Translations under genes and position numbers: made by a program | NCBI GenBank assembly: GCA_019307135.1 | Contig: JAFDKF010000001.1 | Coordinates: 6,104-70,103, forward strand | DNA length: 64,000 nucleotides | DNA from: Deltaproteobacteria bacterium | Lineage (GTDB): Bacteria; Desulfobacterota; Desulfobacteria; Desulfobacterales; C00003060 | Reading direction: 5' to 3' | Notes under the pieces: generated by a model | Told to the model about the DNA's origin: nothing | The model's database searches: none | The model's input: only the letters and a program-made list of their open reading frames with translations | Shown here: positions 1 through 16,768 of the stretch, piece after piece | How positions within the stretch are numbered: position 1 is the stretch's first letter | Layout: each line of letters begins with the position of its first letter

Positions 1-166
1 AGTAACAAGATGGATCTTTTTGGACATAATAACCCCGGAACATTTATCATTGGCCATGTGTAATTGGACCGTCATTATTTTGAAACGCGTGGTGTAAAGA
101 TGCTTTTAGTAATGATAGCAACAAGTTATTTGTGTTGGTATCTATCTCCCAAATTCTACGAATGAG

Positions 167-265: not shown

Positions 266-1546
266 TTAATACCCCTTATGGCACTGAATACACAACTCCT
301 TTTTCCGATCAAATCTCAACGAAAAGTCGTGACGGCTTCCCATCAGGTTGTGGCATGTGATACACGTAATCTCCGCTTTGGATCTCGGATCAATAGCGCC
401 TTTTCCTATAGGATGGGTGAAAGAAGCATGTCTTTTGTGGCAATCATCACTAGTACAGGTAGTGATTTCATCCGCGCCGAAAAATAGCCTGAAGTTCGAG
501 CCGTGGGGACGATGACAGTCGCCGCATTTTCCTTCTTTAACCGACGGGTGTTTGTGCTTATACTTTTTGTCTCTTAAAAGGTCTGCTGTATCCTCATGAC
601 AGGTGGCGCATGTTTTTGCCTCTTTTGCCTTTATCATGTGGGCTTCGTCTGAGCTATGCGGGCTATGGCAATTTGTGCAAAAAACGCCTGGCCCCACATG
701 GGTGTTGACCTTTCTGAAGTCCTCCTTAATCGACTGGTGGCAGGCAGTACAGACCGACATCCCTTCGGCTTTCACGCCCAAGGGATCTCTTGACTGGGCC
801 GAATTATGACATTGAGTACATTTCTTCCGGGCAAATGGCTTATGCGAACTTTCCTTGATCAAATTCCTCTGGTTTGACGCGTGGGGATTATGGCAGGACG
901 TGCACTTCGCATCCTGGACAGGATAATAACTGTGCGATTTTTTCGCCTCTTTACTTCTAATTCTTTTTGAATGGCAAGAAACACATGCTTGTGTAACGTT
1001 CCTCTTCAGCATGGCTTCATGATCAGACGTGTGGGGGCTGTGGCAGGTCAAGCAGTCACCTTTCTTCACGGGCTTATGCTTGTGTTTCTTTGAAATGATC
1101 TCTTTCCTGGCGTGGCAGCTAAAACAGAGTTCCCCCCTTTCGGCGATTAATAGTTTCCGGTTCTTAGATGAATGAGCGTTGTGGCATTTCAGACACGCCC
1201 CTTCCTCAAATGGGGAGTGACCGTACTTTTTGTCAAAAGCCCCCTTCTTGCCTTTGTGACAGCTTTTGCACAGTTTGCCAATATGCTCTTTGACCAGGTG
1301 TTGGTAATTTGAGGTGTGAGGATTGTGGCAGGTTGAACATTCAAGTTTCTTAAAAGGCGCATGGGCACCCCTGGAGGCGATTTCCCGTTCTAAATCAGTA
1401 TGGCACTTCAGGCATTTTTTTAGGCTGACCCGCGTACTTTCGGCATATGTTTGATCCGCCGCCAGCAGAGCGCTTATGGAGACACAAATAAATATAAAAA
1501 AGGCCCAATAAATCTTTTTCGAAATCACAACTATAGTCTTTTGCAT
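266..1546 (-). CDS. Multiheme c-type cytochrome, 16 heme-binding motifs, secreted
   Basis: ORF-track ORF 266..1579. I place the start at ATG 1546 (MQKTIVVISKKIYWAFFIFICVSISALLAA, a signal-peptide-like N-terminus), which removes the overlap with the upstream gene. I counted 15 CxxCH motifs plus one CxxxxCH (CTSDDCH) in the translation. Confidence 0.9.
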   Translation of the reverse strand: MQKTIVVISKKIYWAFFIFICVSISALLAADQTYAESTRVSLKKCLKCHTDLEREIASRGAHAPFKKLECSTCHNPHTSNYQHLVKEHIGKLCKSCHKGKKGAFDKKYGHSPFEEGACLKCHNAHSSKNRKLLIAERGELCFSCHARKEIISKKHKHKPVKKGDCLTCHSPHTSDHEAMLKRNVTQACVSCHSKRIRSKEAKKSHSYYPVQDAKCTSCHNPHASNQRNLIKESSHKPFARKKCTQCHNSAQSRDPLGVKAEGMSVCTACHQSIKEDFRKVNTHVGPGVFCTNCHSPHSSDEAHMIKAKEAKTCATCHEDTADLLRDKKYKHKHPSVKEGKCGDCHRPHGSNFRLFFGADEITTCTSDDCHKRHASFTHPIGKGAIDPRSKAEITCITCHNLMGSRHDFSLRFDRKKELCIQCHKGY

Positions 1547-1575
1547 CTTATATCCAAATGACCACCAATGACCGA

Positions 1576-3525
1576 TCACTCATGACACGCTGTGCAGTCC
1601 CCGTCGGCAAACGGGCGATGCAAGATCTTGTGCAACAAGCCCTTGTTTTCCGAGGTGTGTGATTCATGACAACCGATACAATCAGAGTCCGATATCGTGA
1701 TTCTACTGTGGGAATTCGCCATAGCTGAAGCTTCGAGATTGTGACAAGTTTCGCACAACCTGGCCCTTTCAGCCGTAAGCAGCCCTTGGATATTTGTATA
1801 GTGGGGCCCATGGCATTTCAGACAGGCCCCTTCCTTTGCAGGACTATGCTTATGTTTATCTTTTTCAATATGAACCCTTAGGTCTGTATGACAGGACAGG
1901 CAAAGGCCCCCCAGGGGTCGGTTCAATTGCCCCTTTATCCTGCTCCCATGGGGATTATGACAGACAGTGCATTCTCCTTGTTCAAGCGGGGCGTGGTTGT
2001 ATTTATTCGTTTTAGAAGCGGCTTGAATCCTGGCATGACACCGGTAACAATTCTCTTCTCCCCTTTCGATCAGTTGAAAGTCATTGTCACTGGCGTGTTC
2101 GTTGTGGCATCTTAGGCACTCACCTTTTGCAAAAGAGGGATGGATAGTTCCACCCTTGACCTCATCCAGCATCCCTTGATGGCAGTTAAAGCAGAGTTTC
2201 TTTTTTGCTTGAATCAACCGTTTCCCCCTGTCATTCGAATGGGGACTGTGGCAAACGACACACCTTCCGATCCTTATTGGGGTGTGGACATTTACCCGAT
2301 CAAAGAGCATTCGCTCCTTCTGGTGGCAGGTGTAACACTGCTCGATTTCAACCAGCTGAAGTTCAAATTTGTTGTCCGATGCATGGGGGTTATGGCAGAC
2401 AACACAGTTTCCTTTCTTAATAGGCTCGTGAATATTTGAACGGGTAAAATCATCTTTCCTGTGACACCTGAAGCATAACGTTTTGCCAGAGTCTTTCAGT
2501 TCATATTCGTTCTTTGATGCATGGGGATTATGGCAGGCAGTACAATTGTTCTCTATTATCGGCTTGTGCACATGCCTCTTCTTGAACGATTCCTCTGTCT
2601 CTTTATGGCACGAATAGCAGAGCTTTCCATCAGGCAGAAGGGTTACATATTTGTTGTCCGTGGCATGGGGGCTGTGGCATGACAGGCAGTTGCCTTCTTT
2701 GACGGGGGCATGGACATGGGCCTTTGTAAAAGCCGTCTGGTTTTCCGTGTGGCACCCGTAGCAGAGCTTTGCCCCTTTTTCTTCAACCTTCAAGGGCTCG
2801 GCTGATCCCGGATGGTGGTGGCAGGCGCTGCACTCGTTTTTGTCAAGCGGCATATGAATGAATTCGTGCAGCAATTTGGGATTGGAAGATGAATGTGACG
2901 TATGACACGATACGCAGCGGCTCTCTCCGACCTTATAGCCCGCGTGGCCTGTGATAAACGTAGATTTCTGAAAATCATGACACTTTGCGCATACATTGTT
3001 TTTTGTGTCAAACAGGCATTGCTCATAATCAGAGGCATGGGCATCATGGCAAACCAAACATCCCTTCGTAGACAAAGGGGCATGTGCCTTTTTTCTGGTA
3101 TAAACATCCTCTTTATGGCAGATAAAACACAGCTCATCCCCCTTTCCTTTTAGCAGGTCTTTGTTCATGGATGAATGGGGATTGTGGCAGTTGACACATT
3201 TTTCCTCTTTTACCGGTCCATGGACATGCTTTTTGTCAAGCATGGCTTTGCTATCCTTGTGACAGGTATAGCAAAGCTCCTTTTCGCTGACCCTTAAATA
3301 CACACCGCCGATCACCCCGTGAGGCCTGTGACACGATTCACACCCATCCTTGGCAACAGGGGAATGCACGACCTTTGCCGCTTTAAATTGTTTGGCCTCT
3401 TCCTGGTGACAGTCAATACACTTCTTTTTGACAAGCCGTCCGATCTTTTTCTGACAGGAAGTGGTGCCGATGAGCATGATGCCGACAAGCAACACGAAAT
3501 AACATAGCGGTTTTATTGGTCTCAT
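1576..3525 (-). CDS. Multiheme c-type cytochrome, 26 CxxCH motifs arranged as 13 tandem di-heme modules; possible lipoprotein
   Basis: ORF-track ORF 1576..3618. The likely start is ATG 3525 (MRPIKPLCYFVLLVGIMLIGTTSC; hydrophobic N-terminus, weak lipobox TTSC). I counted 26 CxxCH motifs. The recurring unit is LCxxCH..(about 15 aa)..HxP(V/I)xxGxCxxCHxPHxS. Confidence 0.9.
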   Translation of the reverse strand: MRPIKPLCYFVLLVGIMLIGTTSCQKKIGRLVKKKCIDCHQEEAKQFKAAKVVHSPVAKDGCESCHRPHGVIGGVYLRVSEKELCYTCHKDSKAMLDKKHVHGPVKEEKCVNCHNPHSSMNKDLLKGKGDELCFICHKEDVYTRKKAHAPLSTKGCLVCHDAHASDYEQCLFDTKNNVCAKCHDFQKSTFITGHAGYKVGESRCVSCHTSHSSSNPKLLHEFIHMPLDKNECSACHHHPGSAEPLKVEEKGAKLCYGCHTENQTAFTKAHVHAPVKEGNCLSCHSPHATDNKYVTLLPDGKLCYSCHKETEESFKKRHVHKPIIENNCTACHNPHASKNEYELKDSGKTLCFRCHRKDDFTRSNIHEPIKKGNCVVCHNPHASDNKFELQLVEIEQCYTCHQKERMLFDRVNVHTPIRIGRCVVCHSPHSNDRGKRLIQAKKKLCFNCHQGMLDEVKGGTIHPSFAKGECLRCHNEHASDNDFQLIERGEENCYRCHARIQAASKTNKYNHAPLEQGECTVCHNPHGSRIKGQLNRPLGGLCLSCHTDLRVHIEKDKHKHSPAKEGACLKCHGPHYTNIQGLLTAERARLCETCHNLEASAMANSHSRITISDSDCIGCHESHTSENKGLLHKILHRPFADGDCTACHE

Positions 3526-3592
3526 ATTTTGATTTGCAGCAGTGTGGCGGGAAATGCCCGCCGTACATTTGTTTAGTCGAGTGGAAAAATGG

Positions 3593-5011
3593 TCAATCGG
3601 TCCTGTACTTTTCTTCAATCCTTTTCAGGGCCTTTTTATTGATCTTTATGTTGGATTCTTTACGCAATTTTGCCAAATAATCGGAAAGCACGATGTTGAA
3701 TTTTTGCTGTCCGACAATTCCCTTTAATCTCCGGGCCACGCGGGAAAATTCCTCAGGCTTCCCCCCTCTTTTTCCCTTCAGTTTTATGATCTTGTATAGC
3801 CTGCCATCCGCAAAGACATCGCTTATCTGCCCGACCTCCAGCCGATTTAGCTCGTTTCTAATTCCAAGAGGAAACCCATCAGCGCTAACCCATACGCGCG
3901 CGCCCTTTGGTGTCCACCTTTCTGACACCTGGGCAGCCAGGTATTCAAAGTTGGCTCCCTCCTTTAATTCCTTCAGGGCCTTCTCAGCATCTTCCCGAGC
4001 CTGAAAGGTCATCTCTCTAAACCATACCTCATAACCCTTTCTGAAGTCGTCTATATTTTCTTCATAGTACTTTGTCAACTCTTTTTTTGCTGGAATGGCA
4101 AGGGGATAGATAATTTTTTCCTTAAATTCGTTAATAAGCAGACCCTCTTTACGCCTTGTAATAATGTCCATGAATGCCGGGTCCTTCGTGTAATTGCGCC
4201 TTAATGCCTCCTGCTCGACCAGCTCATAAGTGATCAGCCCATCCAACGACTGTTGCTTTAGCTCTTCGCGCATCTTTTCTTGCTCGCTATTAGTCTTTAA
4301 CCTGCTAAACATCCTGGCCCTTTTTTGAAATGCCCGTTTCATGTCGTGCACCATGTCATCAAGCGGGATTGGCTGGCCATTGACTCGTGCCGCGACTGAC
4401 TTTTTACCAGCATAATCCTTTTCAGGGTCGAGCAAATCAAACAGTTCTTTGTCAATCTGGATATCCGCTTGTTTTCTTAACATTGCAACAAAGTTTTTAG
4501 ACAACTCTTTCTCTTTTTCCTTTTTCAGTTTTTTCGTGATTCGCCTTTTCCTTTTCTCGAATTCCCCCTCTGGGGCAGACCCGTCTTTCTCGTAATGTTT
4601 TTTGAAATAGTCAAGTAGATCTTCCTCACCTATATCGATTTTGTCGAGCACCTCTTCTTTTCTCAATCTGATAACAGATTGATTTTTTATGGACGCCTGG
4701 AGCTTTTTTTCAAAATCAGGATGCCTGTCGAGTTCGACCCTGTACGCGTCCTGGATTATCAGAGCCTCGTCGATCATCTCTTCAAGAAGGTCCAATATCT
4801 TGATGCTGCCCGCCCCCCCTTCAGCTTGGATCAGGGGCTTATATCTGTGAATGGCCTTGATTCTGTCCTGAATCGCTGTTTCATCTATTGTTTCGCCATT
4901 TACTTCCGCAAGAACCATCGTGCGCTCAGAAGCACAATAAAGGGCATCATGATCTGCTGTGGCAAGCAAAAAGAATGCCATCAAGGCAAATACTGATAAT
5001 TTTCTCATCAT
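3593..5011 (-). CDS. Periplasmic SurA/PpiD-like chaperone with a degenerate parvulin-type PPIase domain
   Basis: Signal peptide MMRKLSVFALMAFFLLATA, a long helical and charged middle, and a C-terminal parvulin-like segment (GANFEYLAAQVSE...GQISDVF...YKIIKLKG). The family call is by eye only. Confidence 0.6.
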   Translation of the reverse strand: MMRKLSVFALMAFFLLATADHDALYCASERTMVLAEVNGETIDETAIQDRIKAIHRYKPLIQAEGGAGSIKILDLLEEMIDEALIIQDAYRVELDRHPDFEKKLQASIKNQSVIRLRKEEVLDKIDIGEEDLLDYFKKHYEKDGSAPEGEFEKRKRRITKKLKKEKEKELSKNFVAMLRKQADIQIDKELFDLLDPEKDYAGKKSVAARVNGQPIPLDDMVHDMKRAFQKRARMFSRLKTNSEQEKMREELKQQSLDGLITYELVEQEALRRNYTKDPAFMDIITRRKEGLLINEFKEKIIYPLAIPAKKELTKYYEENIDDFRKGYEVWFREMTFQAREDAEKALKELKEGANFEYLAAQVSERWTPKGARVWVSADGFPLGIRNELNRLEVGQISDVFADGRLYKIIKLKGKRGGKPEEFSRVARRLKGIVGQQKFNIVLSDYLAKLRKESNIKINKKALKRIEEKYRTD

Positions 5012-5020
5012 ACAGACCTC

Positions 5021-5157
5021 GTTAAGTGGTAGAGTAGTTGAGTGGTTAAGTCGTTATTATTATTTGAATTCATATCGTTTGCCTAAAAATTGGACACTTT
5101 GTATGTTCGCAGCTCTAATACGGTGAAACCATTCAACCACTCAACTATTCGACGATC
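5021..5157. repeat. Inverted-arm element of the GTTGAGT/ACTCAAC family (related to 41523-41614)
   Basis: TAGTTGAGTGGTT (5035-5047) is the exact reverse complement of AACCACTCAACTA (5135-5147), with a loop of about 87 nt. It sits in the 197-nt gap between the lipoprotein gene and the SurA-like gene. Confidence 0.7.
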
Positions 5158-5208
5158 TCTGTCATAATCCTTATCGATTGACTACTGACCTCTGACCACT
5201 CTTCCCCC

Positions 5209-5802
5209 TCACGGCATAGTCTCGATCATTTCGCCGACAACCTTTTGGGTCAATGCTGCTACCGACCTTACCTTCCCAAAATCGAGAACTTTTATGTAAT
5301 CATCACCCGTTCTCCTGTGGTGGGCCATCCACAAGATCTTGCCGTTCCTGCCATCCACCATCCTGGATCTGATGGAAACCAACGGAACGACAGCTTTTTT
5401 TCTGTCATCCACACCTATGTATTCGTCTACCTCCCCCAAGACAACGGCATCTACCTCCAGTCTTTTGGCCATCAGTTTTATGGTTTGAAGATTGACGCCT
5501 GTCCTTACAACAATTCGCTCATTGACAAGAAAGGCTCTTACATTACCCGGAAATTCCACCTTGAACTCTCTCCTTTCAAACAGCCCCGCAATAAACGCCT
5601 CGGTGACAATGCTGCTCGCTTCACCCACCTGGGTGTTGTTGTGGAAAGAGAAAACCGCCACTTTCTTGATCTTTGATTTGTCAATACCGGTCCTTTGGTA
5701 ACTATCTGGGCCGGAAAGGGAGTAACATCCGGGGCAGGCAACTAAGAAGAGGCTGATTAGTGAGGAAAAAAAGCTGACCTTGCATAAGAATCGAAGCCTC
5801 AT
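5209..5802 (-). CDS. Lipoprotein with a CsgG/LpoB/DUF799-like alpha/beta domain (paralog 1 of 3)
   Basis: Lipobox LFLVAC. The motif IKKVAVFSFHNNT aligns with IKTVAIVPFENLT (7345..7902) and IKKIAVMPFGSL (5804..7324). The later segments LEVDAVVLGEVDEY and ILWMAHH are also shared. Confidence 0.65.
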   Translation of the reverse strand: MRLRFLCKVSFFSSLISLFLVACPGCYSLSGPDSYQRTGIDKSKIKKVAVFSFHNNTQVGEASSIVTEAFIAGLFERREFKVEFPGNVRAFLVNERIVVRTGVNLQTIKLMAKRLEVDAVVLGEVDEYIGVDDRKKAVVPLVSIRSRMVDGRNGKILWMAHHRRTGDDYIKVLDFGKVRSVAALTQKVVGEMIETMP

Positions 5803-5803
5803 A

Positions 5804-7324
5804 TCAAAAATCCTCGATCCACACCTCTTTTTTCTCAGACGGTTCTCCCTCGGATACCTCTGGTTCAGGTGGTTTTAGAAGTTCTTTTTCTCTTTCTAAC
5901 CTGTTTCCTGCAACGTCGCTAACTTCGAGTGAATAGGCCAAAAAGCCCTCTTTTTCCGGGTTTGGGCCTTCCTGAGCACGCTTTAACGCGCAACTTAGCT
6001 CGGTCGGCATGTCTCCTTTGCCATCAAATTTGCCCGTCTCATTGCCCTTTCTATCATAGATGATTAAGTCCCAGTCCCCTATTCTGCTATTATCTGTCGT
6101 TTTCAGCTCCAAAGTTATGCCCTTATCATCTTCGGCGGCAAGCACCAGATTTACTTCGGGCGGTGTCGTGTCAACCACTATGGTCTCTCTAGGTGAAACC
6201 GATCTGTTGCCAGCCTTATCTTCCAATATCAACTGGCAGAAATAAGTCCCATCTTTAACCCGCTTAAACCTATTATCCTTGCCCCGCCACATAAACCCCC
6301 CGGGCAACCGTCCAGTGCCCTCTTCCGATCTCACAATCGTTCCGGCTACATCGGCAATCTCAACCCTCCAGCCCTCGAGGACATCTGCCTTCAGGAGTTC
6401 CGGGAAAAACAGGATGTTATCCATTATACCATCATTATTGGGCGATATAAGCCTTTGCCCGAATGAAACGGAAACCTCGGGCGGGGTGTTGTCAACTCTT
6501 AGTTGAGCCAAATCATCCATCCTGAAAAGCCTGTTCCCCTGGTCAGTGGCGTATACCCTGAGGGAATATACGCCTTCGATACTCGGGGCAATGAAGGTTC
6601 CGGTGTACCATCGTGCGTCCTCGGTTTTAAGCTCGACCTCGGTGTCAAGGACAAATGCCTTAATGTCCGCGAGCCTTCCTATAATCTCCCTTACCTCAAT
6701 TGACACGTTGGTCCTCTGGCCACCTTTTAACACTTTGGGGAAGAAACTCGCTTGCGCAATCTCAAATGGTCTTGCCTGCTCATCGTGTACACCGGCCTCG
6801 GCGGGTAAGCCTTTCAGGAGATCGGTTACGGCAACTTCTACCAGCTTCTGGAGGGAATTTATCTTACCTATGCCAAGAAAGGTGGCAAAGTCCGCCCCGG
6901 TGTATGAGACGGAGTTTGCCCAGACAACAGCAGAATCAACACAATCTATCATCTGGGCGCTCACGGCGACCCGGGGATTTTCACCACCGGCAAGCATCCC
7001 CACAGAGCCGGTCATCAAGGCATCTGCGCCTAAGGCCGTACCCATTTCCCTGATAGTTGGCCGGTCTAAGAAGTCTGTCCTGCGGACTCTTTTTTCGACC
7101 AGGAACCCTTCCAATACATCCTGAGGGATGACGATGAATTTGTCGTTTATGAGACGATTTGTGATCAGATGGGTAAAATCAAACGATAGGTCATCAACCA
7201 TGAGGCTTCCAAAGGGCATGACCGCAATCTTCTTTATTTTGATTCCCGTTTTCGCCCCAAAGATCTCGCCTGATGAGCCGAGCAGGAAGATTAGAAAAAC
7301 CAGAATGAATAAACGCCTTTTCAC
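5804..7324 (-). CDS. Secreted protein: N-terminal CsgG/LpoB-like domain (paralog 2 of 3) followed by FlgD-Ig/SPNxDG-type Ig-like domains and an acidic tail
   Basis: Signal peptide MKRRLFILVFLIFLLGSSGEIFG. N-terminal domain shared with the two flanking lipoproteins. ISPNNDGIMDNILFF lies between VDNTPPEV and VDTTPPEV boundaries, as in FlgD-Ig-like domains. The stop is 1 nt from the next gene's start. Confidence 0.6.
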   Translation of the reverse strand: MKRRLFILVFLIFLLGSSGEIFGAKTGIKIKKIAVMPFGSLMVDDLSFDFTHLITNRLINDKFIVIPQDVLEGFLVEKRVRRTDFLDRPTIREMGTALGADALMTGSVGMLAGGENPRVAVSAQMIDCVDSAVVWANSVSYTGADFATFLGIGKINSLQKLVEVAVTDLLKGLPAEAGVHDEQARPFEIAQASFFPKVLKGGQRTNVSIEVREIIGRLADIKAFVLDTEVELKTEDARWYTGTFIAPSIEGVYSLRVYATDQGNRLFRMDDLAQLRVDNTPPEVSVSFGQRLISPNNDGIMDNILFFPELLKADVLEGWRVEIADVAGTIVRSEEGTGRLPGGFMWRGKDNRFKRVKDGTYFCQLILEDKAGNRSVSPRETIVVDTTPPEVNLVLAAEDDKGITLELKTTDNSRIGDWDLIIYDRKGNETGKFDGKGDMPTELSCALKRAQEGPNPEKEGFLAYSLEVSDVAGNRLEREKELLKPPEPEVSEGEPSEKKEVWIEDF

Positions 7325-7344
7325 GGAAACGACACCTCAATTCT

Positions 7345-7902
7345 CTATCCCCCAAACAGCGTGTCAAACATCTCGGCGACCAGCTCTTTTGCAAGATCGC
7401 TTGTGCTTTTCTTACTGATACCAAAGAGCCGGTCTAAGACCGTTGTCCCTTTTACACTGTGGGTCGCTTCCCATAGAATCTTATAAGATTTTGCATCTAT
7501 TAACTTTAGGGAGACAGAGACTTCCGGATACGAGCTTCCGCCTGTTCGTGAGACACCATACTCTTCAACCGAGCCCACGATGAAGGCCTGAACATTCAAG
7601 CGCTTTGCCCCCCTTTCTGCCACGCGCTTGCTGATTAAACCGTCGCCTTTGAAACCTTCCTCCCTCAGTACCTTGGCGACCTCTCCGAATTCAACAACGT
7701 CAAATATGCCCCGTCTTAAGACCTCTGCGGCCACAACATTCATCACCTTGCCTTCTGCCCCTTTCTCCTGGGTCAGATTTTCAAAAGGCACAATAGCCAC
7801 TGTCTTGATATATGTTAGGTCTGCTGTGGGGTGGATATAGCTGATAGGGCCACCACAGCCTGAAAAGAAGAGCAGGAAGAATATGCATAGCGCATAGCGC
7901 AT
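7345..7902 (-). CDS. Lipoprotein with a CsgG/LpoB/DUF799-like domain (paralog 3 of 3)
   Basis: ORF-track ORF 7345..7995. I place the start at ATG 7902 (MRYALCIFFLLFFSGCGG, lipobox FSGC). It is clearly alignable to 5209..5802 along its whole length. Confidence 0.65.
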   Translation of the reverse strand: MRYALCIFFLLFFSGCGGPISYIHPTADLTYIKTVAIVPFENLTQEKGAEGKVMNVVAAEVLRRGIFDVVEFGEVAKVLREEGFKGDGLISKRVAERGAKRLNVQAFIVGSVEEYGVSRTGGSSYPEVSVSLKLIDAKSYKILWEATHSVKGTTVLDRLFGISKKSTSDLAKELVAEMFDTLFGG

Positions 7903-7965
7903 GGGGTTAATAATTGGTTTCGTCTGCCCTCTGCTTCCTGCCTTATGCGCCATGCGCCATGCGCC
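7885..7965. repeat. Inverted heptamer arrays: (AGCGCAT)x2 facing (ATGCGCC)x3
   Basis: The left array (7889-7902) contains the ATG and first codons of the 7345..7902 lipoprotein gene. The right array (7945-7965) is its 6/7 complement. The two are about 42 nt apart, in the gap after the beta-barrel gene. Confidence 0.75.
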
Positions 7966-8006
7966 GTGTGCTTTGCGTGCGTTCAATTCGATCATTGCTT
8001 TACCAT

Positions 8007-10145
8007 CTAAAACCTTGCTGAAAGGTTTGCGGTTATGGTTTGTGTTTCGGTTTCCGTATCGGCTTCCTCCCGGCTCCAGTCATATCCGAACCTGAGCGTG
8101 AACACCTGGCTTAAGTTCCACGAGAGGTCAGAGGAATAGGTTTTCTTGATTGTATCATTCCTGTCTATGGCATAGTCCATACTGAGCTGTACCTTTTTGG
8201 TCAACAACCAGTTCAGATTATAGTCCTGACGAGAGGTTTCATCGCCAGACTCTTCGTCCCGGTCAACGCCATATGATCCCCTGAAATAGAAATCGTGTGA
8301 GGGCCGCCAGTAAAGCGTGACTTCGGCATTGGAAGTTCGGCCTGTCGTATCACCGCTCGGCGCTTCTGTCTTTGACCAGTTTATATTATACTCTATTTCA
8401 GTTGTCAAGACGCTGGTAAGCTCAAGACGTAGGTTCGAGTGAATAGATTTCGTGGTTGACTCGGAATCAGTTGATAGATTTTCAGTGCGGGTAATATCTC
8501 CGTCTATGTCCAGATCTGCCCCCTCACGGAGCTTGGCCGCTATGTGCAGCAGGGCAGATGAGGTCTTTGATTGTGTCTCAGATTCTTCTTTCAATACCCA
8601 GTGGTTCAGGGAAAGGTCGGTATCAAGTGTGGTTAGCGGGGATGAAACAAAGTACAGCCGATACGTATCGGTCGATCTACGCGTTGTCTCTTCCTCAGAA
8701 TCCTCAGAATCCTTTTCTTCATATTCCAACCGCTTTTGATAGTAGGGCCGGACCTCAAGGTATTTGTGCACCTGAAACCCTTTTTCTACAAGGCCGCTTA
8801 AGTATTGGCGCGACTGCTTGGTTGTGGTCGAGTCGCCCTCGTTCTCGTTCTTCCGCCTGTCCTGGTTGAGATCATAAGTAAAAGAGAGCCAGTCAAAGGG
8901 TCTAAGCCCAAGATTGGCCTGGATGGTTTGTGTGGTCGTCTCTTCTTCGGTTGTGGTATAAGGGGCGTAGGTCGTAACGCTGTATGCTTCGATCTTTCTG
9001 GCTTGCAGGGGCTGGGGATCGCTTGCAGTGTTCACCACCTTAAAGTACCGTGCCGATGTCTTGGTAAAGGAGATCTCAAACCGCTCTTGGATCGTGTCAT
9101 AATCGAAGCTGGCATCAGCGGTTATCGGTGTCCATGTGCTGTTATCAGTACTTGAATACACAGCCCACGTAAAGTTGTTCTCGTCAAACGCAGGGTCAGG
9201 CGTGCTCGTATAAAGATAGATCAGTTCAACCTCAGTATCAGGATGCAGCTCCACCCCTATGTTCTGATCGTTCACTCCGCCAATGTTTATGTTTGCTGTG
9301 CCATCTCTCAGGGTGTCGTCAATACCAAGAGCCCCTGTCCCCGGCATGGGGTCAGGAGCATACAGTCCGTGAAGGACGGTCTCTTTTTCGGGCTTGCTGA
9401 CCTCCTCCCCCCTTGCCTTTGTTTCCGTCTCCCTCTCATTTATCGAATAGCTTCCGGATGAGGTGATCTTGTTGCTCCAGAAAGATTTCCTGAAATCGAT
9501 TCGCCCATCAAGGGTATTGGTCTCCTGGGTGCTATCTGCAACATAATCGTCTGAAATTTCGTTCGTGTAGTCGCCAAAAAAGTTCAAAAATCTATAGGCA
9601 TAGTCAGCGCTCCCGGAAAACCTCTTTGTCTCGGTGTTTGTCTCGTGAACTGGCAGGTGGTCATAATTCTTGTCTTGATCGTAGCGGAGCCGGAGCTTGG
9701 GATATTTTTCGAGTCTTGTGTATAAATTGTAATTCCAGGATTCGGTCGTGAACCGTTCTTCATCTGAGTCCGCGGTCAAGACGTCCAGGCCCTTTTCGTC
9801 TAAGCGATACCCGGCAGCGGCATCGAAATATTCGTTTGACACATTGAGCCTCATATCCGGATAGAGCCGTGTTTTCTTGTCGGTGGTTTTCTCGTCGTCT
9901 GTTTCAGTAACATCTTTAGTAACATTGACGCCAACATCAGCGTTAAAACTTACCTTTGATGTTATCTCTTTGGTAAGCCCGAGGTTGTACAACTGTGTAA
10001 GGCTCCAGGTGCTCGTCTTTTCATGATCCTTCTTTGTTTCGCTGGAGCGATAAGAAATGTCTGCCGAGGCGCGTATATCGTCTCCCGCGTAAGCCGCGCG
10101 GAAGCAAGCCAGGGTTAACAAGAAAACAGCAATCCAGCATCTCAT
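8007..10145 (-). CDS. Large outer-membrane beta-barrel protein with a central discoidin (F5/8 type C)-like domain
   Basis: Signal peptide MRCWIAVFLLTLACFRAAYA/GDD. Alternating Y/F/D/T/S-rich beta-strand composition throughout and a C-terminal ...ANLSARF (terminal Phe). The middle segment WAVYSSTDNSTWTPI...SARYFKVVNT resembles galactose-binding-like/discoidin domains. Confidence 0.7.
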   Translation of the reverse strand: MRCWIAVFLLTLACFRAAYAGDDIRASADISYRSSETKKDHEKTSTWSLTQLYNLGLTKEITSKVSFNADVGVNVTKDVTETDDEKTTDKKTRLYPDMRLNVSNEYFDAAAGYRLDEKGLDVLTADSDEERFTTESWNYNLYTRLEKYPKLRLRYDQDKNYDHLPVHETNTETKRFSGSADYAYRFLNFFGDYTNEISDDYVADSTQETNTLDGRIDFRKSFWSNKITSSGSYSINERETETKARGEEVSKPEKETVLHGLYAPDPMPGTGALGIDDTLRDGTANINIGGVNDQNIGVELHPDTEVELIYLYTSTPDPAFDENNFTWAVYSSTDNSTWTPITADASFDYDTIQERFEISFTKTSARYFKVVNTASDPQPLQARKIEAYSVTTYAPYTTTEEETTTQTIQANLGLRPFDWLSFTYDLNQDRRKNENEGDSTTTKQSRQYLSGLVEKGFQVHKYLEVRPYYQKRLEYEEKDSEDSEEETTRRSTDTYRLYFVSSPLTTLDTDLSLNHWVLKEESETQSKTSSALLHIAAKLREGADLDIDGDITRTENLSTDSESTTKSIHSNLRLELTSVLTTEIEYNINWSKTEAPSGDTTGRTSNAEVTLYWRPSHDFYFRGSYGVDRDEESGDETSRQDYNLNWLLTKKVQLSMDYAIDRNDTIKKTYSSDLSWNLSQVFTLRFGYDWSREEADTETETQTITANLSARF

Positions 10146-10164
10146 ATAATTTCAGTTCGCATCT

Positions 10165-10428
10165 CTAGGAGGCTGTCCGAGAATTCAAATTTGACGAAAT
10201 CGCCCTTAATAAATTCAAGTGCTTAGCGAGTCCCAATGTAACTTCTCAATAAGTTGGGGCAGATCATGTTTTGCGACTATTCACTGGATTCCCGCCTTCG
10301 CGGGAATGACAGACACTTGCAGCCAATCGTCATTCCCGCGAAGGCGGGAATCCACTAGTTATTACCCTGACTTTTTGAGAAGTTACGTCCCAATTGGGCA
10401 AAAATGCTATTCTCGGACAACCTCCTAG
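10165..10428. mobile_element. MITE-like nested palindromic element A (264 bp); shares its outer TIR with element B at 40074-40317
   Basis: TIR CTAGGAGGCTGTCCGAGAAT (10165-10184) against ATTCTCGGACAACCTCCTAG (10409-10428), 19/20 complementary. Inner inverted repeats are GTAACTTCTCAA / TTGAGAAGTTAC and GGATTCCCGCCTTCGCGGGAATGAC / GTCATTCCCGCGAAGGCGGGAATCC. Confidence 0.75.
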
Positions 10429-10489
10429 TAGAAATTCGGCGGGCTTGGTCATAATTTCGGCCAGCCAAGTGGGTCCGCACCCCGTAGCG

Positions 10490-10640
10490 TGCCCCCTCCC
10501 CGCCTGCCAACGCCTGGGTCGCACGGAGGTTACAATGCCCACACACAAGGCAACCTGCCCGCCATTGCCAGAGATGCCAGCATATAAGCTCAATGCTGTC
10601 TCAGGCGTTGGCAGGCGGGTGGCGGGCAGGTGTGGGGCAC
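10490..10640. repeat. Palindromic REP-like element (CCGCCTGCCAACGCC family)
   Basis: CCGCCTGCCAACGCCT (10500-10515) is the exact reverse complement of AGGCGTTGGCAGGCGG (10603-10618). The outer GTGCCCC / GGGGCAC also pair. The modules CCGCCTGCCAACGCC and CTGGCAATGGCGGGCAGG recur near 22400-22470, the latter in inverted orientation. Confidence 0.7.
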
Positions 10641-10718
10641 ATATTGTGGGCTAATCGGCTCAACCCGGTGAAGACCAAATTTTTCAGGTAACCGCACAGG
10701 TCCAAATATTTCGTATGG

Positions 10719-12149
10719 CTATTCTTCAATCAGGGCAATGCCGTGGGGGGTTTTTCCCACCTGAACCACTTTCTTCATGGTGTACGTTGGCAGGTCTATG
10801 ACAGACACGTCCTCAGACATCGAATTTATGACATAAAGTTTTCTTCTCAACTGGTCAATGGCCATCTCTGAAGGTAGGTCACCTGCCATCACATTTCTAT
10901 CCACCAAACCCATTCGTGGGTATACAAAAGAAATCTCGTTGCTGTTTGCATTGGACACGTAAATACGTTCTTGCAGGCCGGACAACATGCGGGTAGGCTT
11001 TTGCCCAACAGAAATCGTCTTTGTAGGCCTGTAGGGTGGTTGTAATGGGATCTCCATCACATAGATGTTGTTCGAAGCCGAATTGGCCACATACAGCCTA
11101 TCTTCGTGGATAAGCATTCCCGTGGGCTTCAGGCCAACAGTAACAGTCTTTTCCACAGATCGTTCGTAGTTATCTTCGTACATATCAATGACGGATATGG
11201 TATGCGATGCAGTGTTTGTCACATAGATCTTGCGCCTGTCTTGATCGACTACTATGCAGCAAGGGCGCTTGCCGACAGGTATCGTGCCGATGACCGTACG
11301 CGCAACAGTATCTATGACAGATACATTGTCCGAATCGGGGTTGGTTGCATAAAGCAAAAGGATTTGGCGAACTTCGGAGAGGGCAAGCTCAGCAGGGCTG
11401 TTACCAAAATTGCTGATTGTATTGATCACTCTGTTTATGGCCGTATCGATGACTGAAATTGTGTCTGAACCGGAATTGGCCACATAGACTCTGCGCCCAT
11501 CCGCCCTTGCCACAATTCCCACAGGTGCCCTGCCCACTGCAATACTTGCCACCACCATATCCTGTTCTCTGTCTATCACCGTAACGCAGTGAGAGTCGGT
11601 GTTTGTTACATAGATTAAGGTTTTCGTGATTTCCGCACCCTGTTTCCGAATAGTCAGCTCCGGCCTGAAGAGATATTTCTCGAAAACAGACTGCTCTGGA
11701 TCCCAGTCTGCAAATAGACACTGGCTTTCCCGGCCCAAAACAGAGAACTCGAAGTCCACAAAATGCTCTCCCCCGGGCTGGGGTACGGCTAAGGTAAAGC
11801 TTTTCTTGACCTTTTTCATCCTTGCCTCAGAAATAATCCACTTGACCCGTTTATACTTTCCGGCAGGCAGATAGAACTCGCGCAATTTGATCTGCCTTTC
11901 TGCAAGCTCAGCAGAATCAACGTGCTTATCCAGCGCCACATCGATCCACACTCCCTCCTTGTTCATAAAGCTCATGCCGGAGATAGAAAAGGAGATATCA
12001 AACGTAGGTTTCTTGGGACAGGAAAGATAAAAAAAGACCTGACCCTGGTCGGGAAACCGGGGGGCTTTCCGATCAGGCTCAAAAGCGCAGGAGATTATGC
12101 AGATTGGAGCCACCATTGCCGCGATGAAACGGATAATCATCTTTTGCAT
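10719..12149 (-). CDS. Lipoprotein with a seven-bladed YVTN-family beta-propeller
   Basis: I place the start at ATG 12149, preceded by AAGGTGG (ORF track 10719..12179). Lipobox IISC. Seven repeats of the type (I/L/V)YV(T/A/S/I)N....(V/I)SVID, e.g. IYVTNTDSHCVTVID, VYVANSGSDTISVID, IYVTNTASHTISVID. Confidence 0.85.
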   Translation of the reverse strand: MQKMIIRFIAAMVAPICIISCAFEPDRKAPRFPDQGQVFFYLSCPKKPTFDISFSISGMSFMNKEGVWIDVALDKHVDSAELAERQIKLREFYLPAGKYKRVKWIISEARMKKVKKSFTLAVPQPGGEHFVDFEFSVLGRESQCLFADWDPEQSVFEKYLFRPELTIRKQGAEITKTLIYVTNTDSHCVTVIDREQDMVVASIAVGRAPVGIVARADGRRVYVANSGSDTISVIDTAINRVINTISNFGNSPAELALSEVRQILLLYATNPDSDNVSVIDTVARTVIGTIPVGKRPCCIVVDQDRRKIYVTNTASHTISVIDMYEDNYERSVEKTVTVGLKPTGMLIHEDRLYVANSASNNIYVMEIPLQPPYRPTKTISVGQKPTRMLSGLQERIYVSNANSNEISFVYPRMGLVDRNVMAGDLPSEMAIDQLRRKLYVINSMSEDVSVIDLPTYTMKKVVQVGKTPHGIALIEE

Positions 12150-12207
12150 GATAACCACCTTCTTTAGGGTGTAAATCAAGATTGTTGGTTGTTGAGTTCA
12201 ATTGTAA

Positions 12208-12381
12208 GGTGTCAGTGTTCAGGTTTCAGCTCTTGAAGTTTCGCGATCCTGACACCTGACACCTGACACCCGACACCTGACACCCGACACCTGACACCCG
12301 ACACCTGACACCCGACACCTGACACCCGACACCTGACACCCGACACCTGACACCCGACACCCGACACCCGACACCTGAAAC
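12208..12381. repeat. Tandem heptamer array (CYGACAC)x18 with a partial upstream complement
   Basis: 18 contiguous 7-nt units at 12249-12374, mostly alternating CTGACAC/CCGACAC. GGTGTCAG at 12208-12215 is complementary to the unit. It lies between the YVTN and NHL genes. Confidence 0.9.
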
Positions 12382-12420
12382 CTTTTCCCCAAAACTAAAT
12401 ACGCATCACGGACACGGCAT

Positions 12421-13449
12421 TTACCGTATGTTCAACACCTGCACCCTATTGTTGAATGTATCTGCAACCAGAACGTTGCCCAGGGTGTCCACAGCTATAT
12501 CGGTAGGATACTGGAACCAGCCCCTTGCCCACCCCTTGCCGCCGAACTCGAACAAGAAGCGTCCGTCTTCCGACGAATAGGCACTCGCTGTGTGGCGCAT
12601 ATAGTCTATCACGTAAATCCTTTTGTTGCGGCTGTCCACGCCCATGCCACGGGGGCGGCTCAGTTTCCCGGAACCGCCTCCCTTTTGCCCAAACTTAAAG
12701 AGAAACTGCTCTTGGGGATCATACACATAGATGCGGCCCATGTCTTCGCTCAAAAGGTATATATGGCCCCGGTTGCCTATCTCCACGTCGCATATTGTAG
12801 CCTTTTCAACTGGCCCCTTGCCGAGTTTGTCAGTTGATGTCAAGAGATGGGAAAATCTTCCATCCTTATCCAAAACCACTGCCCCGCGATAGGCAGTGCC
12901 TGTCACGTAGAGATGACCTTTGTCGTTGATGGCAATATTGGTTGGGTTGAAATTGTCTGCACCTTCAAAACCGTCAAAGAAAATATCTTTCTTCCACCTT
13001 AGACAAGGATTCAAGACGGAAATCCTACCCTTTTTCTTTTTCCCGGTTGGCGATTGGGCAATAAACAGATATCCTTCAGGATCAACGGCCAGCCCCACAG
13101 GTACTTGAATCCCGTCCGATTTGCCAATAGAAAGAAGGGGATAGAAATCGTGGGTATAGACCAATATCCTGCTGTTCCCGGAATCGACCACATAGATCTC
13201 CTTCTTTACAGAATCAACGAACACCTTACAGGGGTACGACATAGGCACGCCTTCATAGCCCTCCCGGATAACCTGAAGACAAGTGATTTTCGAGGGCTCA
13301 AAGTCGTTCGTGCTGCGAACACCCTCCTGGGCGTGGAGTAAATGCATCCGCCCGGGTTGTGAGGTGATATCAAAAGGCACAGATAGTAAGGCGACAAGCC
13401 CTATGATGGGTAGGTATTGCCATTTTCGGGATTTGGGTCTTTCGGTCAT
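12421..13449 (-). CDS. Secreted NHL-repeat beta-propeller protein
   Basis: N-terminal hydrophobic segment YLPIIGLVALLSV. Repeats of the type IYVVDSGNSRILVY, IYVIDYMRHTASAY and VLVADTFNNRVQVL are typical of NHL blades. Confidence 0.8.
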   Translation of the reverse strand: MTERPKSRKWQYLPIIGLVALLSVPFDITSQPGRMHLLHAQEGVRSTNDFEPSKITCLQVIREGYEGVPMSYPCKVFVDSVKKEIYVVDSGNSRILVYTHDFYPLLSIGKSDGIQVPVGLAVDPEGYLFIAQSPTGKKKKGRISVLNPCLRWKKDIFFDGFEGADNFNPTNIAINDKGHLYVTGTAYRGAVVLDKDGRFSHLLTSTDKLGKGPVEKATICDVEIGNRGHIYLLSEDMGRIYVYDPQEQFLFKFGQKGGGSGKLSRPRGMGVDSRNKRIYVIDYMRHTASAYSSEDGRFLFEFGGKGWARGWFQYPTDIAVDTLGNVLVADTFNNRVQVLNIR

Positions 13450-14143: not shown

Positions 14144-14761
14144 ATGTTTACGTTAAACGTATCTGGCATAGGCAAGCATTATGGAGAAACACTGTTGTTC
14201 AAAAACATCTCCTTTCAGTTGAATCAAGGAGATGTGTTGGCTGTTGCCGGATGGAACGGATCGGGCAAGAGCACCCTGCTTCGGATTATTGCCGGTCTTG
14301 TAAAGCCATCGGCTGGTCAGGTTGAAATGTTTTTCAACAAGGAGCCCATACCAAGAGAATCGAGGCGGGGGTTTGTTGGTATGGTGGCGCCTGCCTTATC
14401 TCTGTATGACGAGTTGACGGGTCTTGAGAACATGGAGTTTTTCTGCAGGGTGAGAGGCGTCGCCTGCAATCGTAACGATTGTCTCGACATCATTGATCGT
14501 GTGCGGCTGACGGAACATGCAACAAAAATGTGCAGGGACTACTCTTCCGGGTTGAAGCAAAGGTTGAAACTGGCTCAGGCGTTGCTCCATAAACCACCGC
14601 TATTATTGTTAGACGAACCAGGGTGCAACCTTGACAGCCAGGGGATTAAGGTTGTGGAAGAGATTATTTCAAATCAGAGGCAATTAGGGATGACCGTTAT
14701 TGCATCAAACGAAAAACGGGAGGTGGGGTACGCAGGCAAGGTCGTCAACCTATCTGAATGA
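14144..14761 (+). CDS. ccmA: Heme exporter ATP-binding protein CcmA
   Basis: Walker A GWNGSGKST, ABC signature YSSGLKQRL, Walker B LLLLDEP. First gene of a ccm-ordered cluster. Confidence 0.85.
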   Translation: MFTLNVSGIGKHYGETLLFKNISFQLNQGDVLAVAGWNGSGKSTLLRIIAGLVKPSAGQVEMFFNKEPIPRESRRGFVGMVAPALSLYDELTGLENMEFFCRVRGVACNRNDCLDIIDRVRLTEHATKMCRDYSSGLKQRLKLAQALLHKPPLLLLDEPGCNLDSQGIKVVEEIISNQRQLGMTVIASNEKREVGYAGKVVNLSE

Positions 14762-15422
14762 GGCCGTCGCTATTTGGCTTCGTGATCTACGCAGCGAATT
14801 CAGGACCCGCTATGCCCTGAATGCCATCCTGATGTTTGCTGTGACCACCCTCATAGCTGTGAGCTTTTCCATTGGATCCTTCCGCATCGAAGAAGCTGAA
14901 AGGCCCTTTTTATTTTCAGTCCTGTTATGGATAATTTTGACCTTTTCCGCCTTATCCGGGCTTGCCCGCTCCTTTGTCAAGGAAGAAGAGGCCGGCACCA
15001 TAGACGTATTGAAGCTTTCTGCGCGCCCCCAGGCTGTATTCTTGGGAAAGCTATTTTTCAATTTGACCCTGTTGGGAGCTTTGGAGCTCATCATTGTGCC
15101 ATCGTTTGTTCTCTTGATGTCCTACCAGATAAACTCTCCGGGCTTTTTTATCGCCATAATCATCAGCGGCGGGCTTGGTTTGGGGGCGGGCACAACGATA
15201 ATCGCTGCAATGATAGCCAGGGCCAGTACCCGGGGAGCGTTGTTTTCTGCCCTGTCTCTGCCCTTGCTCTTGCCCCTCATGATTACCTGTATCAAGGGCT
15301 GCGAAAGGGCTGCCATTGGCATGAATAATGCGAGTTGGCCTGAGGTCAAAGTCGCTGTTGCCTATTTTATAATAATGATTACAATGTCGTTGCTGCTATT
15401 TCCTTTGGTATGGGAAGAATAA
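14700..15422 (+). CDS. ccmB: Heme exporter membrane protein CcmB (start uncertain)
   Basis: Polytopic membrane protein between ccmA and ccmC. The ORF-track start is TTG 14700, overlapping ccmA by 62 nt. No in-frame ATG occurs before NAILMFAV, so the true start is unresolved. Confidence 0.7.
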   Translation: MHQTKNGRWGTQARSSTYLNEAVAIWLRDLRSEFRTRYALNAILMFAVTTLIAVSFSIGSFRIEEAERPFLFSVLLWIILTFSALSGLARSFVKEEEAGTIDVLKLSARPQAVFLGKLFFNLTLLGALELIIVPSFVLLMSYQINSPGFFIAIIISGGLGLGAGTTIIAAMIARASTRGALFSALSLPLLLPLMITCIKGCERAAIGMNNASWPEVKVAVAYFIIMITMSLLLFPLVWEE

Positions 15423-15438
15423 AAGGATCAGGAGATTT

Positions 15439-16098
15439 ATGATCTGCAAAATCCTATTGACAATCTGGATGGCTGTTATCATTGTTGCTTCCTTTTTGTA
15501 CGCAGGAGCAGCCGCTGGCTTTCCAGGCGAGACGTCCCGCATTTTGTTTTTTCATGTGCCCCAGGCATGGATTGCAACGCTGGCTTTTTTGATATCGATG
15601 ATAGCAAGTGCTGTCTATCTGGCCAAACGCCGTGTGAAGGCAGACTATTTGGCTCAATCTGCCGCAGAACTGGGATTCCTATTCTGTGTTCTTGCCACGA
15701 TTACCGGTTCTGTATTCGCAAAGGCTACATGGGGGGCATTTTGGAATTGGGATCCCAGGCAGACCTCGATTGTAATACTGCTCATGATTTATGGGGCCTA
15801 TTTTGCTATCCGTTCGGCAGTCAGTGATCCTGACAGAAGACGGGTATTTGCGGGGGTATATTCGATCCTGGCTTTTGTCACAGTGCCATTTTTGGTCTTT
15901 GTTGTTCCACGGATAACAACATCACTCCATCCTGAGAACACGATGAACCCCGCCAGTCCTGGTATGGACCCGAAAACCTTGAAGGTGTTCTTAGGCTCAT
16001 TATTTGCGTACACCGGATTGTTCGTCTGGATGCTCTGGTTAAAGATAAGGGTATTAAGGATTGAGGGATTGAGGAATTTGGGAATTGAGGAATTGTGA
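15439..16098 (+). CDS. ccmC: Heme exporter protein CcmC
   Basis: Trp-rich WWD-type motif WGAFWNWDPRQT. RBS AGGAG upstream of ATG 15439. The C-terminal residues RIEGLRNLGIEEL are encoded by ATTGAGG-type short repeats. Confidence 0.85.
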   Translation: MICKILLTIWMAVIIVASFLYAGAAAGFPGETSRILFFHVPQAWIATLAFLISMIASAVYLAKRRVKADYLAQSAAELGFLFCVLATITGSVFAKATWGAFWNWDPRQTSIVILLMIYGAYFAIRSAVSDPDRRRVFAGVYSILAFVTVPFLVFVVPRITTSLHPENTMNPASPGMDPKTLKVFLGSLFAYTGLFVWMLWLKIRVLRIEGLRNLGIEEL

Positions 16099-16262
16099 AT
16101 CGGATGCCAGATGCCTGATAGTAGATGCGAGTCACCTGGTTCCAACACATCTGGCATCAGGGATCGGGTTTCAGCCAGACACGAAGTGAAGCTTGCGCTA
16201 AACGATTCGCAACTAACGGATAACAAATAACAAATAACGATTCACGAAATGGGGGCAGACGC

Positions 16263-16385
16263 ATGAAAGAGGGTTTGAGTTTTGTCATGGGGGTTAATCT
16301 TATTATATGGTGTGGCATAGCCCTTTACCTGTTTATCTTGGATCGTAGGATCAAGAAGCTGGAAGAGAGGAATACGGACACGTGA
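16263..16385 (+). CDS. ccmD: Small membrane protein, CcmD-like (40 aa; absent from the ORF track)
   Basis: My translation: MKEGLSFVMGVNLIIWCGIALYLFILDRRIKKLEERNTDT. It has a single TM helix followed by a basic/acidic tail. The TGA (16383-16385) overlaps the ccmE GTG (16382). Confidence 0.6.
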   Translation: MKEGLSFVMGVNLIIWCGIALYLFILDRRIKKLEERNTDT

Positions 16386-16768
16386 ACATGAAAAAATCCT
16401 ACATCATCGGTGCCGTTATTATCGCTTTAGCCATGGTAATGGCGATGTATTCTTTCAAGTCAACCATGACCACTTATGTGAGTGTCAGCGAGGCCAGGGT
16501 GAGCCCTCGACCGGTGCAGGTGGCCGGGATTGTAGCTCTGGGGAGCAAGAAGTATGACCTTCAAAACAATAGATTGATCTTTACCTTGCGGGAAGACAGC
16601 GGCGACGAGATACCGGTTGAATATCACGGGCACAAACCTGCAAATTTTGATGATGTCACAAAGATTGTTGCTACAGGCAAGTACAACACGGAAAGACGGG
16701 TATTTGTGGCAAGAGAACTGCTGGTCAAGTGCCCTACTAAATACGAACAGCGGGTTAAAGGGCAATGA
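16382..16768 (+). CDS. ccmE: Heme chaperone CcmE, CxxxY variant
   Basis: N-terminal TM anchor and OB-fold-like body. The C-terminal KCPTKYE has CxxxY in place of the canonical HxxxY. The start is GTG 16382 (GTGA overlap) or ATG 16388. The stop overlaps the ccmF ATG (ATGA). Confidence 0.8.
   Translation: MNMKKSYIIGAVIIALAMVMAMYSFKSTMTTYVSVSEARVSPRPVQVAGIVALGSKKYDLQNNRLIFTLREDSGDEIPVEYHGHKPANFDDVTKIVATGKYNTERRVFVARELLVKCPTKYEQRVKGQ

Follow-up and report, generated by a model that had tools for sequence, protein, structure and literature searches.

A Seep-SRB1c gene cluster recognized by sequence as a copy of the OetABI/HmlAB and osc outer-membrane cytochrome module

Described systems and the identity of the cluster

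The gene cluster considered here lies in a 64-kb stretch of a deltaproteobacterial contig (JAFDKF010000001.1; this whole stretch is referred to as the window), in which nine open reading frames (ORFs) follow one another on the minus strand between positions 266 and 13449. Its closest described relatives belong to two separate literatures, one on the Oet and Hml proteins of seep sulfate reducers and one on the osc (omcS-companion) genes of Geobacter. In SEEP-SRB1a/c, Skennerton et al. (2017) described an operon in which a 26-heme cytochrome gene stands beside a 16-heme cytochrome gene; together with a peptidyl-prolyl isomerase (PPIase) and a six-bladed propeller these form the core of the operon, and homologues occur in Desulfuromonadales (PMC5539420). 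Murali et al. (2023) defined an OetI-type conduit consisting of a periplasmic cytochrome OetA, a porin OetI and an extracellular lipoprotein OetB, with HmlB placed extracellularly and HmlA in the periplasm. The putative filament cytochromes OmcX, OmcS-like and Apc2a are frequent in the Oet cassette, but not obligatory: OmcS-like and OmcX genes are often found at the position that omcS and omcT occupy in G. sulfurreducens, or they lie at another place in the genome (PMC10553843).

In Geobacter, GSU2500 to GSU2493 constitute an eight-gene "nanowire secretion" block, of which GSU2495 encodes a protein of about 70 kDa with 26 hemes, and all 12 Geobacter genomes with this block carry an OmcS-family hexaheme gene at its head (PMC12977616). 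GSU2501 corresponds to oscC, GSU2495 to oscI and GSU2494 to oscJ; as summarized by another paper that cites Shen et al. (2025), OscH is involved in folding, OscE, OscF and OscG in secretion and OscD in nanowire morphology (PMC13194489). According to papers citing that study, OmcS nanowires are proposed to follow a porin-like pathway, for which a "channel-like OscEFG" model has been put forward. A more distant resemblance exists with the MtrCAB and Geobacter Pcc conduits, in which a large barrel is likewise encoded together with two multi-heme cytochromes, one of them periplasmic and the other a lipoprotein. The sequences are not homologous to those of these systems, whose cytochromes contain about 8 to 12 hemes as opposed to 26 and 16 in the window; moreover, the window cluster additionally encodes a trio of PelC-like proteins, a PPIase and propellers, and its barrel has a discoidin insert.

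Judged by sequence and gene order, the window cluster is the Seep-SRB1c copy, from a Desulfobacterales-related metagenome-assembled genome, of the widespread outer-membrane multi-heme cytochrome module known as OetABI/HmlAB in the partners of methane-oxidizing archaea and relatives of these partners, and as osc in Geobacter. It has been described before, and a published tree even contains an identical barrel: the barrel protein (8007-10145) is 100% identical over 712 amino acids (aa) to homologue P0367, which is MBW1675111.1 and is listed in the OetI tree as "Seep-SRB1c_Meg22_810_Bin_246" (PMC10553843). The S5 Table of that study gives for the relative B60-G16 the order ccmFEDCBA, NHL, β-propeller, omb, four unlabelled genes, hmlB and hmlA, and labels the first gene of the cluster 'NHL repeat protein' (PMC10553843). 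RLB82945.1, from the B60-G16 row, falls in the cluster of P0018, the barrel of locus L025. The features that mark Oet membership are present in the window, namely an OetI homologue, an adjacent 26-/16-heme pair, a PPIase and a six-bladed propeller; the cluster is the same as OetABI/HmlAB and differs from it in nothing substantive. The four genes that stand between omb and hmlB carry no label in the OetABI tables; here they are assigned to three PelC-like proteins and the PPIase. Syntrophic-clade OetABI cassettes often include OmcX, OmcS-like or Apc2a genes, whereas the window copy does not.

A preliminary description of the locus, made from the sequence alone, had suspected an outer-membrane electron conduit or a cytochrome-export locus. 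This is in agreement with the OetABI reading (PMC10553843) and with the osc reading as far as it is relayed in the citing literature (PMC13194489). The gene coordinates, six intergenic gaps, heme counts, terminal Phe of the barrel, lectin-like insert (a discoidin domain) and three mutually alignable small proteins that it reported have all been recovered, and its SurA-like chaperone and its YVTN and NHL propellers are recognized as such by Pfam and NCBIfam. Its claim of novelty had to be abandoned: the PelC-like trio, the discoidin insert, the PPIase and the 26-/16-heme pair are the signature of a widespread family, of which the barrel profile retrieves 879 representative clusters at E ≤ 1e-30. 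Close relatives of the barrel itself number 116 in a 90%-clustered collection.

Homology to osc and the components of the module

As the Geobacter reference we used the region around omcS in G. sulfurreducens subsp. ethanolicus, which was retrieved by way of OmcT (locus L023; the loci that were compared are numbered with an L). It begins with omcS and omcT, after which come genes for a spermine-synthase-like protein of 1017 aa and for a third hexaheme cytochrome. Four further genes follow, of which the first encodes a YVTN protein of 492 aa and the third a GNA1162-like lipoprotein of 199 aa; the products of the second and the fourth measure 725 and 392 aa. From locus tags and gene order, we infer that these four are OscD, OscE, OscF and OscG. 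Each of them has a counterpart in the window in BLASTP and phmmer comparisons. The YVTN propeller (10719-12179) matches OscD with 26% identity over 477 aa (E 3e-39), the barrel matches OscE with 22.5% over 701 aa (E 1e-29), and lp3, the first of the three small proteins (7345-7902), matches OscF with 29% over 177 aa (E 2e-26). The third, lp1 (5209-5802), matches the second domain of OscG, residues 194-368, with 27% over 177 aa (E 3e-16), while the N-terminal domain of the middle one, lp2 (5804-7324), matches OscG with 24% over 144 aa (E 7e-8 and 5e-7) and would by gene order be the counterpart of OscG domain 1. OscG contains two PelC-like domains, so there are three per system in both cases, and the trio is therefore a feature of the family.

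For the remaining genes the comparison was made with the complete Geobacter-type loci L019-L021, as L023 ends before OscH. The 26-heme cytochrome scores 433-452 bits, the 16-heme cytochrome 235-269 bits and the PPIase 48-73 bits. The osc system and the window have in common OscD, OscE, OscF and OscG; a PPIase at the place of OscH, the 26-heme (OscI) and 16-heme (OscJ) cytochromes and a terminal NHL protein are probable further counterparts. There are also clear differences. Identity amounts to only 22-29%; OscG is one gene with two domains in osc and is split into two genes in the window, the first of which has acquired extra immunoglobulin (Ig)-like domains; the PPIase of the window is about 100 aa shorter. 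Furthermore, the hexaheme genes OmcS, OmcT and OscC and the spermine-synthase-like OscB, all of them osc features, are missing from the window, and ccm genes adjoin the window cluster, unlike osc. The G. sulfurreducens OscD ORF (L023, 15772-17268) contains one CXXCH motif; none is present in the window homologue or in any other OscD homologue scanned, so that a heme-dependent behaviour of this protein, if there is one, would be confined to Geobacter.

Over the 26 loci in which synteny was compared, two layouts are found; the gene order is conserved in 24 loci, among them loci from Desulfuromonas, Nitrospirota and Thermodesulfobacteriota. In the Geobacter-type layout, the order is NHL, OmcS-like, OscD, OscE, OscF, OscG, a PPIase of about 550-580 aa, 26-heme, 16-heme and NHL; its hosts are Desulfobacteraceae, Nitrospirota and metagenome-assembled genomes of Thermodesulfobacteriota. 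In the window-type layout, the order is NHL, YVTN, barrel, small lipoprotein, PelC-like protein with Ig-like domains, small lipoprotein, a PPIase of about 480 aa, 26-heme, 16-heme and NHL, and this layout occurs in the window, L004, L005, L025, L026 and the Desulfuromonas locus L022. A genome scan with a distant barrel subgroup yielded 14 loci, none of them from Geobacter. Variations on both layouts were encountered. L004, which comes from a Seep-SRB1c relative, has two additional genes (14480-16237) separating the second PelC-like gene from the third; they encode a five-heme cytochrome of 389 aa and a protein with a HAMP domain. The S5 Table of Murali et al. gives the same arrangement as 'omc, methyl accepting chemotaxis protein' (PMC10553843). 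In the Geobacter-type loci L003, L008, L009, L012 and L017, all from Desulfobacteraceae, the triad of PPIase, 26-heme and 16-heme genes is inverted and diverges from the half with NHL, OmcS and OscDEFG. Extra cytochromes with 18-24 hemes are encoded near these inverted loci, for example at 17890-20937 of L003, with 24 CXXCH motifs.

The barrel, known as OetI or 'omb' and homologous to OscE, starts with a signal peptide and ends on ...LSARF, with the terminal Phe noted in the preliminary description. Pfam assigns it to OMP_b-brl, and the AlphaFold2 model, built on an alignment of 33 sequences, is an all-beta barrel with a mean predicted local distance difference test (pLDDT) score of 88.7 and a predicted template modelling (pTM) score of 0.60; the possibility raised beforehand that the 712-aa protein might not be a barrel is not borne out by this model. 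In the DSSP assignment, 11 long strands precede a beta-sandwich at about residues 249-395 and 17 further strands follow, which gives about 28 barrel strands. The insert alone matches the discoidin (F5/8 type C) profile with E 1.6e-5 and 25.5 bits, under the Pfam cut-off of 28.2; this cut-off is passed by the orthologues P0018 and P0012, and several barrel orthologues bear the NCBI name "discoidin domain-containing protein". Inserted after an odd number of strands, the domain would, by strand counting, lie on the extracellular side. Foldseek retrieves only large outer-membrane barrels with the model (TonB-dependent transporters, LptD, ushers and MtrB). The highest TM-score is that of MtrB (6R2Q_B; 0.40/0.44, below 0.5, at 8% identity), and the Pfam and NCBIfam searches of the barrel gave no MtrB match.

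The three small proteins can be aligned with each other in all pairs (lp1-lp3, 32%, E 6e-20; lp1-lp2, 26%, E 1e-11; lp2-lp3, 24%, E 1e-4). Pfam recognizes lp3 as GNA1162-like and as LpoB. The profile of the small proteins matches the GNA1162 structure 4HRV (E 2.5e-10) and the PelC structures 5T11 (2.9e-9), 5T10 (5.3e-9), 9H80 (7.1e-9) and 5T0Z (1.8e-8). By these matches, lp1, lp2 and lp3 are classed as members of the PelC/GNA1162 fold family, and the earlier guess of a PelC- or CsgG-like nature was right at the level of the fold family. The same guess had treated all three as (lipo)proteins. This stands for lp3 and lp1, which have the lipoboxes FFSGC and LVAC, the signal peptide and lipobox of lp3 beginning at 7902 even though its first in-frame ATG is at 7995. 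It does not stand for lp2, of which the signal peptide contains no Cys: lacking an N-terminal Cys, lp2 is a secreted protein and not a lipoprotein. Behind its PelC-like domain, lp2 has a C-terminal region with Ig-like Pfam hints and a match to the BIg domain of SiiE (2YN3; E 4e-4). In common with the PelB-PelC system, proteins of the PelC/GNA1162 fold family are thus encoded beside an outer-membrane barrel. In that system, a single protein forms a homo-oligomer, the dodecameric PelC ring under the porin (5T10, 5T11, 9H80), as opposed to three paralogous domains in the window, and the context is polysaccharide synthesis instead of cytochromes. Size is a further point of difference. The PelB porin is far smaller than a barrel of the window type.

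The larger cytochrome (1576-3525), HmlB/OetB and the equivalent of OscI (GSU2495), contains 26 CXXCH motifs; it consists of 13-14 paired-CXXCH modules, and Paired_CXXCH_1 matches it in 14 stretches. Nearly all 26-heme orthologues retain a Cys directly behind the hydrophobic region of the signal peptide. Lipidation, already considered possible in the preliminary description, is thereby supported, and the protein is probably a lipoprotein, which fits the published extracellular lipoprotein HmlB. The smaller cytochrome (266-1546), HmlA/OetA and the equivalent of OscJ (GSU2494), has 15 CXXCH and one CX4CH motif, hence 16 hemes, behind an ordinary signal peptide. The PPIase (3593-5011) is SurA-like (Pfam Rotamase_2, SurA_N_3), is predicted to be periplasmic and is the equivalent of OscH. 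A 26-heme orthologue is found in every complete cluster, followed in all of them by a 16-heme orthologue, and the PPIase holds the same position throughout. With the 26-heme protein as query, repeat-rich cytochromes dominated the search for homologues to the point that even close orthologues failed to appear; the search did yield one Desulfuromonas locus and P0235, an 896-aa protein in which PPIC-type rotamase domains are fused to a paired-CXXCH multi-heme cytochrome. This natural fusion suggests a functional coupling of the chaperone with its presumed client.

Conduit or exporter

The locus as a whole is very probably best explained by its identity as an Oet/Osc module and by a mechanism built around outer-membrane cytochromes. 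In such a mechanism, the two cytochromes would together receive about 42 hemes from CcmABCDEF in the periplasm, where the SurA-like PPIase may keep these long, heme-dense chains foldable. The barrel of about 28 strands, with lp3, lp2 and lp1 at its periplasmic mouth, would constitute a putative outer-membrane channel, by analogy with PelC under PelB. The preliminary description had likewise imagined the small proteins as a ring under the barrel, in line with the "channel-like OscEFG" model as it is quoted in citing papers. The 26-heme lipoprotein would be passed into or through this channel and, with the 16-heme periplasmic cytochrome, may form an electron path from the periplasm to the cell surface, while the propellers would act as accessory factors.

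Several points weigh against this explanation. A conduit function in this organism is predicted from the genes, and the published readings differ, being a static conduit in the Oet literature and the folding and secretion of nanowires in the Osc literature; the data presented here cannot separate them. The functions of the Osc proteins are taken from papers citing Shen et al. (2025). Moreover, the mapping of the letters D to H onto genes depends on the order of locus tags and on the gene order of L023, and since L023 stops before OscH-K, equivalents for these were taken from L019-L021, which belong to other phyla, and from the description of GSU2495. For this particular organism, the conduit version has an even chance of being correct, and what remains goes mostly to the same machine exporting a filament-forming cytochrome that is encoded elsewhere.

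This second possibility, in which the cluster is a folding and secretion machine for an OmcS-like, OmcX or Apc2a cargo from another place in the genome and in which the 26- and 16-heme proteins feed the base of the filament, is a serious one, to which we attach somewhat more than a one-in-three chance. It draws on the Geobacter-type clusters, in which a true OmcS homologue lies directly upstream of OscD-E-F-G. In L003, the gene for a barrel homologue with 23% identity (P0111) comes immediately after those for a YVTN propeller and a hexaheme cytochrome of 393 aa, and the latter protein matches 6EF8, the structure of the OmcS filament, with E 1.4e-74; L008-L021 likewise have an OmcS homologue at that position. 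Among the window-type clusters, L004, L005 and L022 have beside them a distantly OmcS-like family of 5-6-heme cytochromes, with 24-27% identity (those of L005 and L022 found no PDB sequence match). Furthermore, filament cytochromes can be situated elsewhere in the genome when they are missing from the cassette (PMC10553843), and a putative PelC-like ring together with a PPIase suits export better than a static conduit. On the other side, the window itself offers no candidate cargo of this kind. Neither the 64-kb window nor the 10 kb that follow it downstream (contig L006) contain an OmcS-like, OmcX or Apc2a gene or another multi-heme ORF; tblastn of the window with OmcS, OmcT and OscC and with the distant family of 5-6-heme cytochromes gave zero matches, and a CXXCH scan found no ORF with at least two motifs in the 64 kb beyond the two cytochromes. 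The closest relatives, L025 and L026, do not have an OmcS-like gene within 10 kb of the cluster either.

The lack of a linked OmcS-like cytochrome in this Seep-SRB1c subclade (window, L025 and L026) is the sole real difference from the Geobacter paradigm. It leaves the 26-heme lipoprotein itself as a possible cargo. That this lipoprotein is the native cargo of the barrel, the PelC-like trio and the PPIase, as suggested by the missing OmcS-like gene and the invariance of the 26-/16-heme pair, is a tentative idea that we hold to be rather unlikely. If true, the ancestral task of the Osc/Oet system would be to thread a heme wire of about 70 kDa through the outer membrane, and the assembly of OmcS nanowires in Geobacter would be a later addition.

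A Pel-like module for polysaccharide export or adhesion that merely happens to lie beside cytochrome genes, as the PelC match of the small proteins and the carbohydrate-binding type of the discoidin domain might suggest, is highly improbable and was dropped, since the module co-occurs with cytochromes at all adequately flanked loci: in several phyla, every such locus has multi-heme genes at most 10 kb away from the barrel, usually including the 26-/16-heme pair, so that a barrel module devoid of cytochromes, the arrangement that the preliminary description had named as fatal to its proposal, was not observed; the barrel and PelC-like genes are syntenic with the PPIase and cytochrome genes throughout, and the cluster contains no glycosyltransferase or Pel biosynthesis genes.

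Surroundings of the cluster and meaning for the family

The first gene of the cluster (12421-13449) encodes a six-bladed NHL-repeat propeller (Pfam NHL, E 1e-18) that matches the NHL protein of 327 aa encoded ahead of omcS in G. sulfurreducens (phmmer, E 2e-15) and keeps its position in L004, L005, L025 and L026. It is followed by the YVTN beta-propeller, a probable lipoprotein with an IISC lipobox (TIGR02276, E 4e-53). At the other end, a second NHL propeller is the last gene of the cluster; it is cut by the window edge (1-129, minus strand, with an approximate start). On L006, this 316-aa NHL protein begins 137 nucleotides (nt) past the 16-heme gene and is succeeded by unrelated housekeeping genes. 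The annotation of the six-bladed propellers is based on Pfam NHL/DUF5128.

Divergently from the cluster, ccmABCDEF (14144-19020, plus strand) encodes System I heme attachment (Pfam ABC_tran, CcmB, CcmC and CcmF; CcmE and CcmD were called on L001). The "complete ccm operon" of the preliminary description holds for ccmABCDEF and not beyond it, as no ccmG, ccmH or ccmI adjoins these genes. The divergent ccm linkage is common to the window, L004, L025 and the S5 Table of Murali et al. CcmF is long in the window and L025 (745-751 aa), and the divergent ccmABCDEF without adjacent ccmG/H/I is found throughout the subclade. Farther along the window there is a 1694-aa ORF (51203-56287, minus strand), besides several further large ORFs.

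From the barrel gene down to the 16-heme gene, the six gaps measure 104, 20, 1, 197, 67 and 29 nt, with ATG starts for lp3 at 7902, for the 26-heme cytochrome at 3525 and for the 16-heme cytochrome at 1546. The 197-nt gap between lp1 and the PPIase (5012-5208) had been pointed out as the site of a hairpin at which transcripts might terminate. It contains a 15-bp stem, but its predicted fold is no better than that of shuffled sequences (z -1.5), and a search for a terminator-like site on the coding strand found none. The gap shrinks to 92 nt in L025 and 48 nt in L026, and the genes overlap in L005; therefore, no conserved regulatory element is indicated here. An Rfam scan of the whole window gave zero matches.

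The 573-nt gap between the YVTN propeller and the barrel is of a different nature. It holds a palindromic element of about 270 nt (10165-10428) made up of three nested inverted repeats, the innermost of which is 26 nt long and perfect, with a minimum free energy of -140 kcal/mol (z -13.5). The element is missing from relatives, the gap being about 50 nt in L025, and no second copy of its 25-mer core occurs within the window. It looks like an inserted element similar to a miniature inverted-repeat transposable element, inside the operon and outside the conserved cluster. In the same gap, a second, GC-rich inverted repeat (10490-10628) has 27-nt arms that are 89% complementary and 85 nt apart.

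The role ascribed to the module to which this cluster belongs is the passage of electrons through the outer membrane, both during direct interspecies electron transfer and during metal respiration, which makes the locus biologically important. It does not add a new kind of system. It does link the Oet/Hml literature on seep sulfate reducers with the Osc literature on Geobacter gene by gene, and genes of the Oet cassette that had remained without a label now have a place in the PelC/GNA1162 family or as the PPIase. A subclade that keeps the whole machine without a linked OmcS-like gene bears on the question of whether this machine works as a conduit, as an exporter or in both ways.

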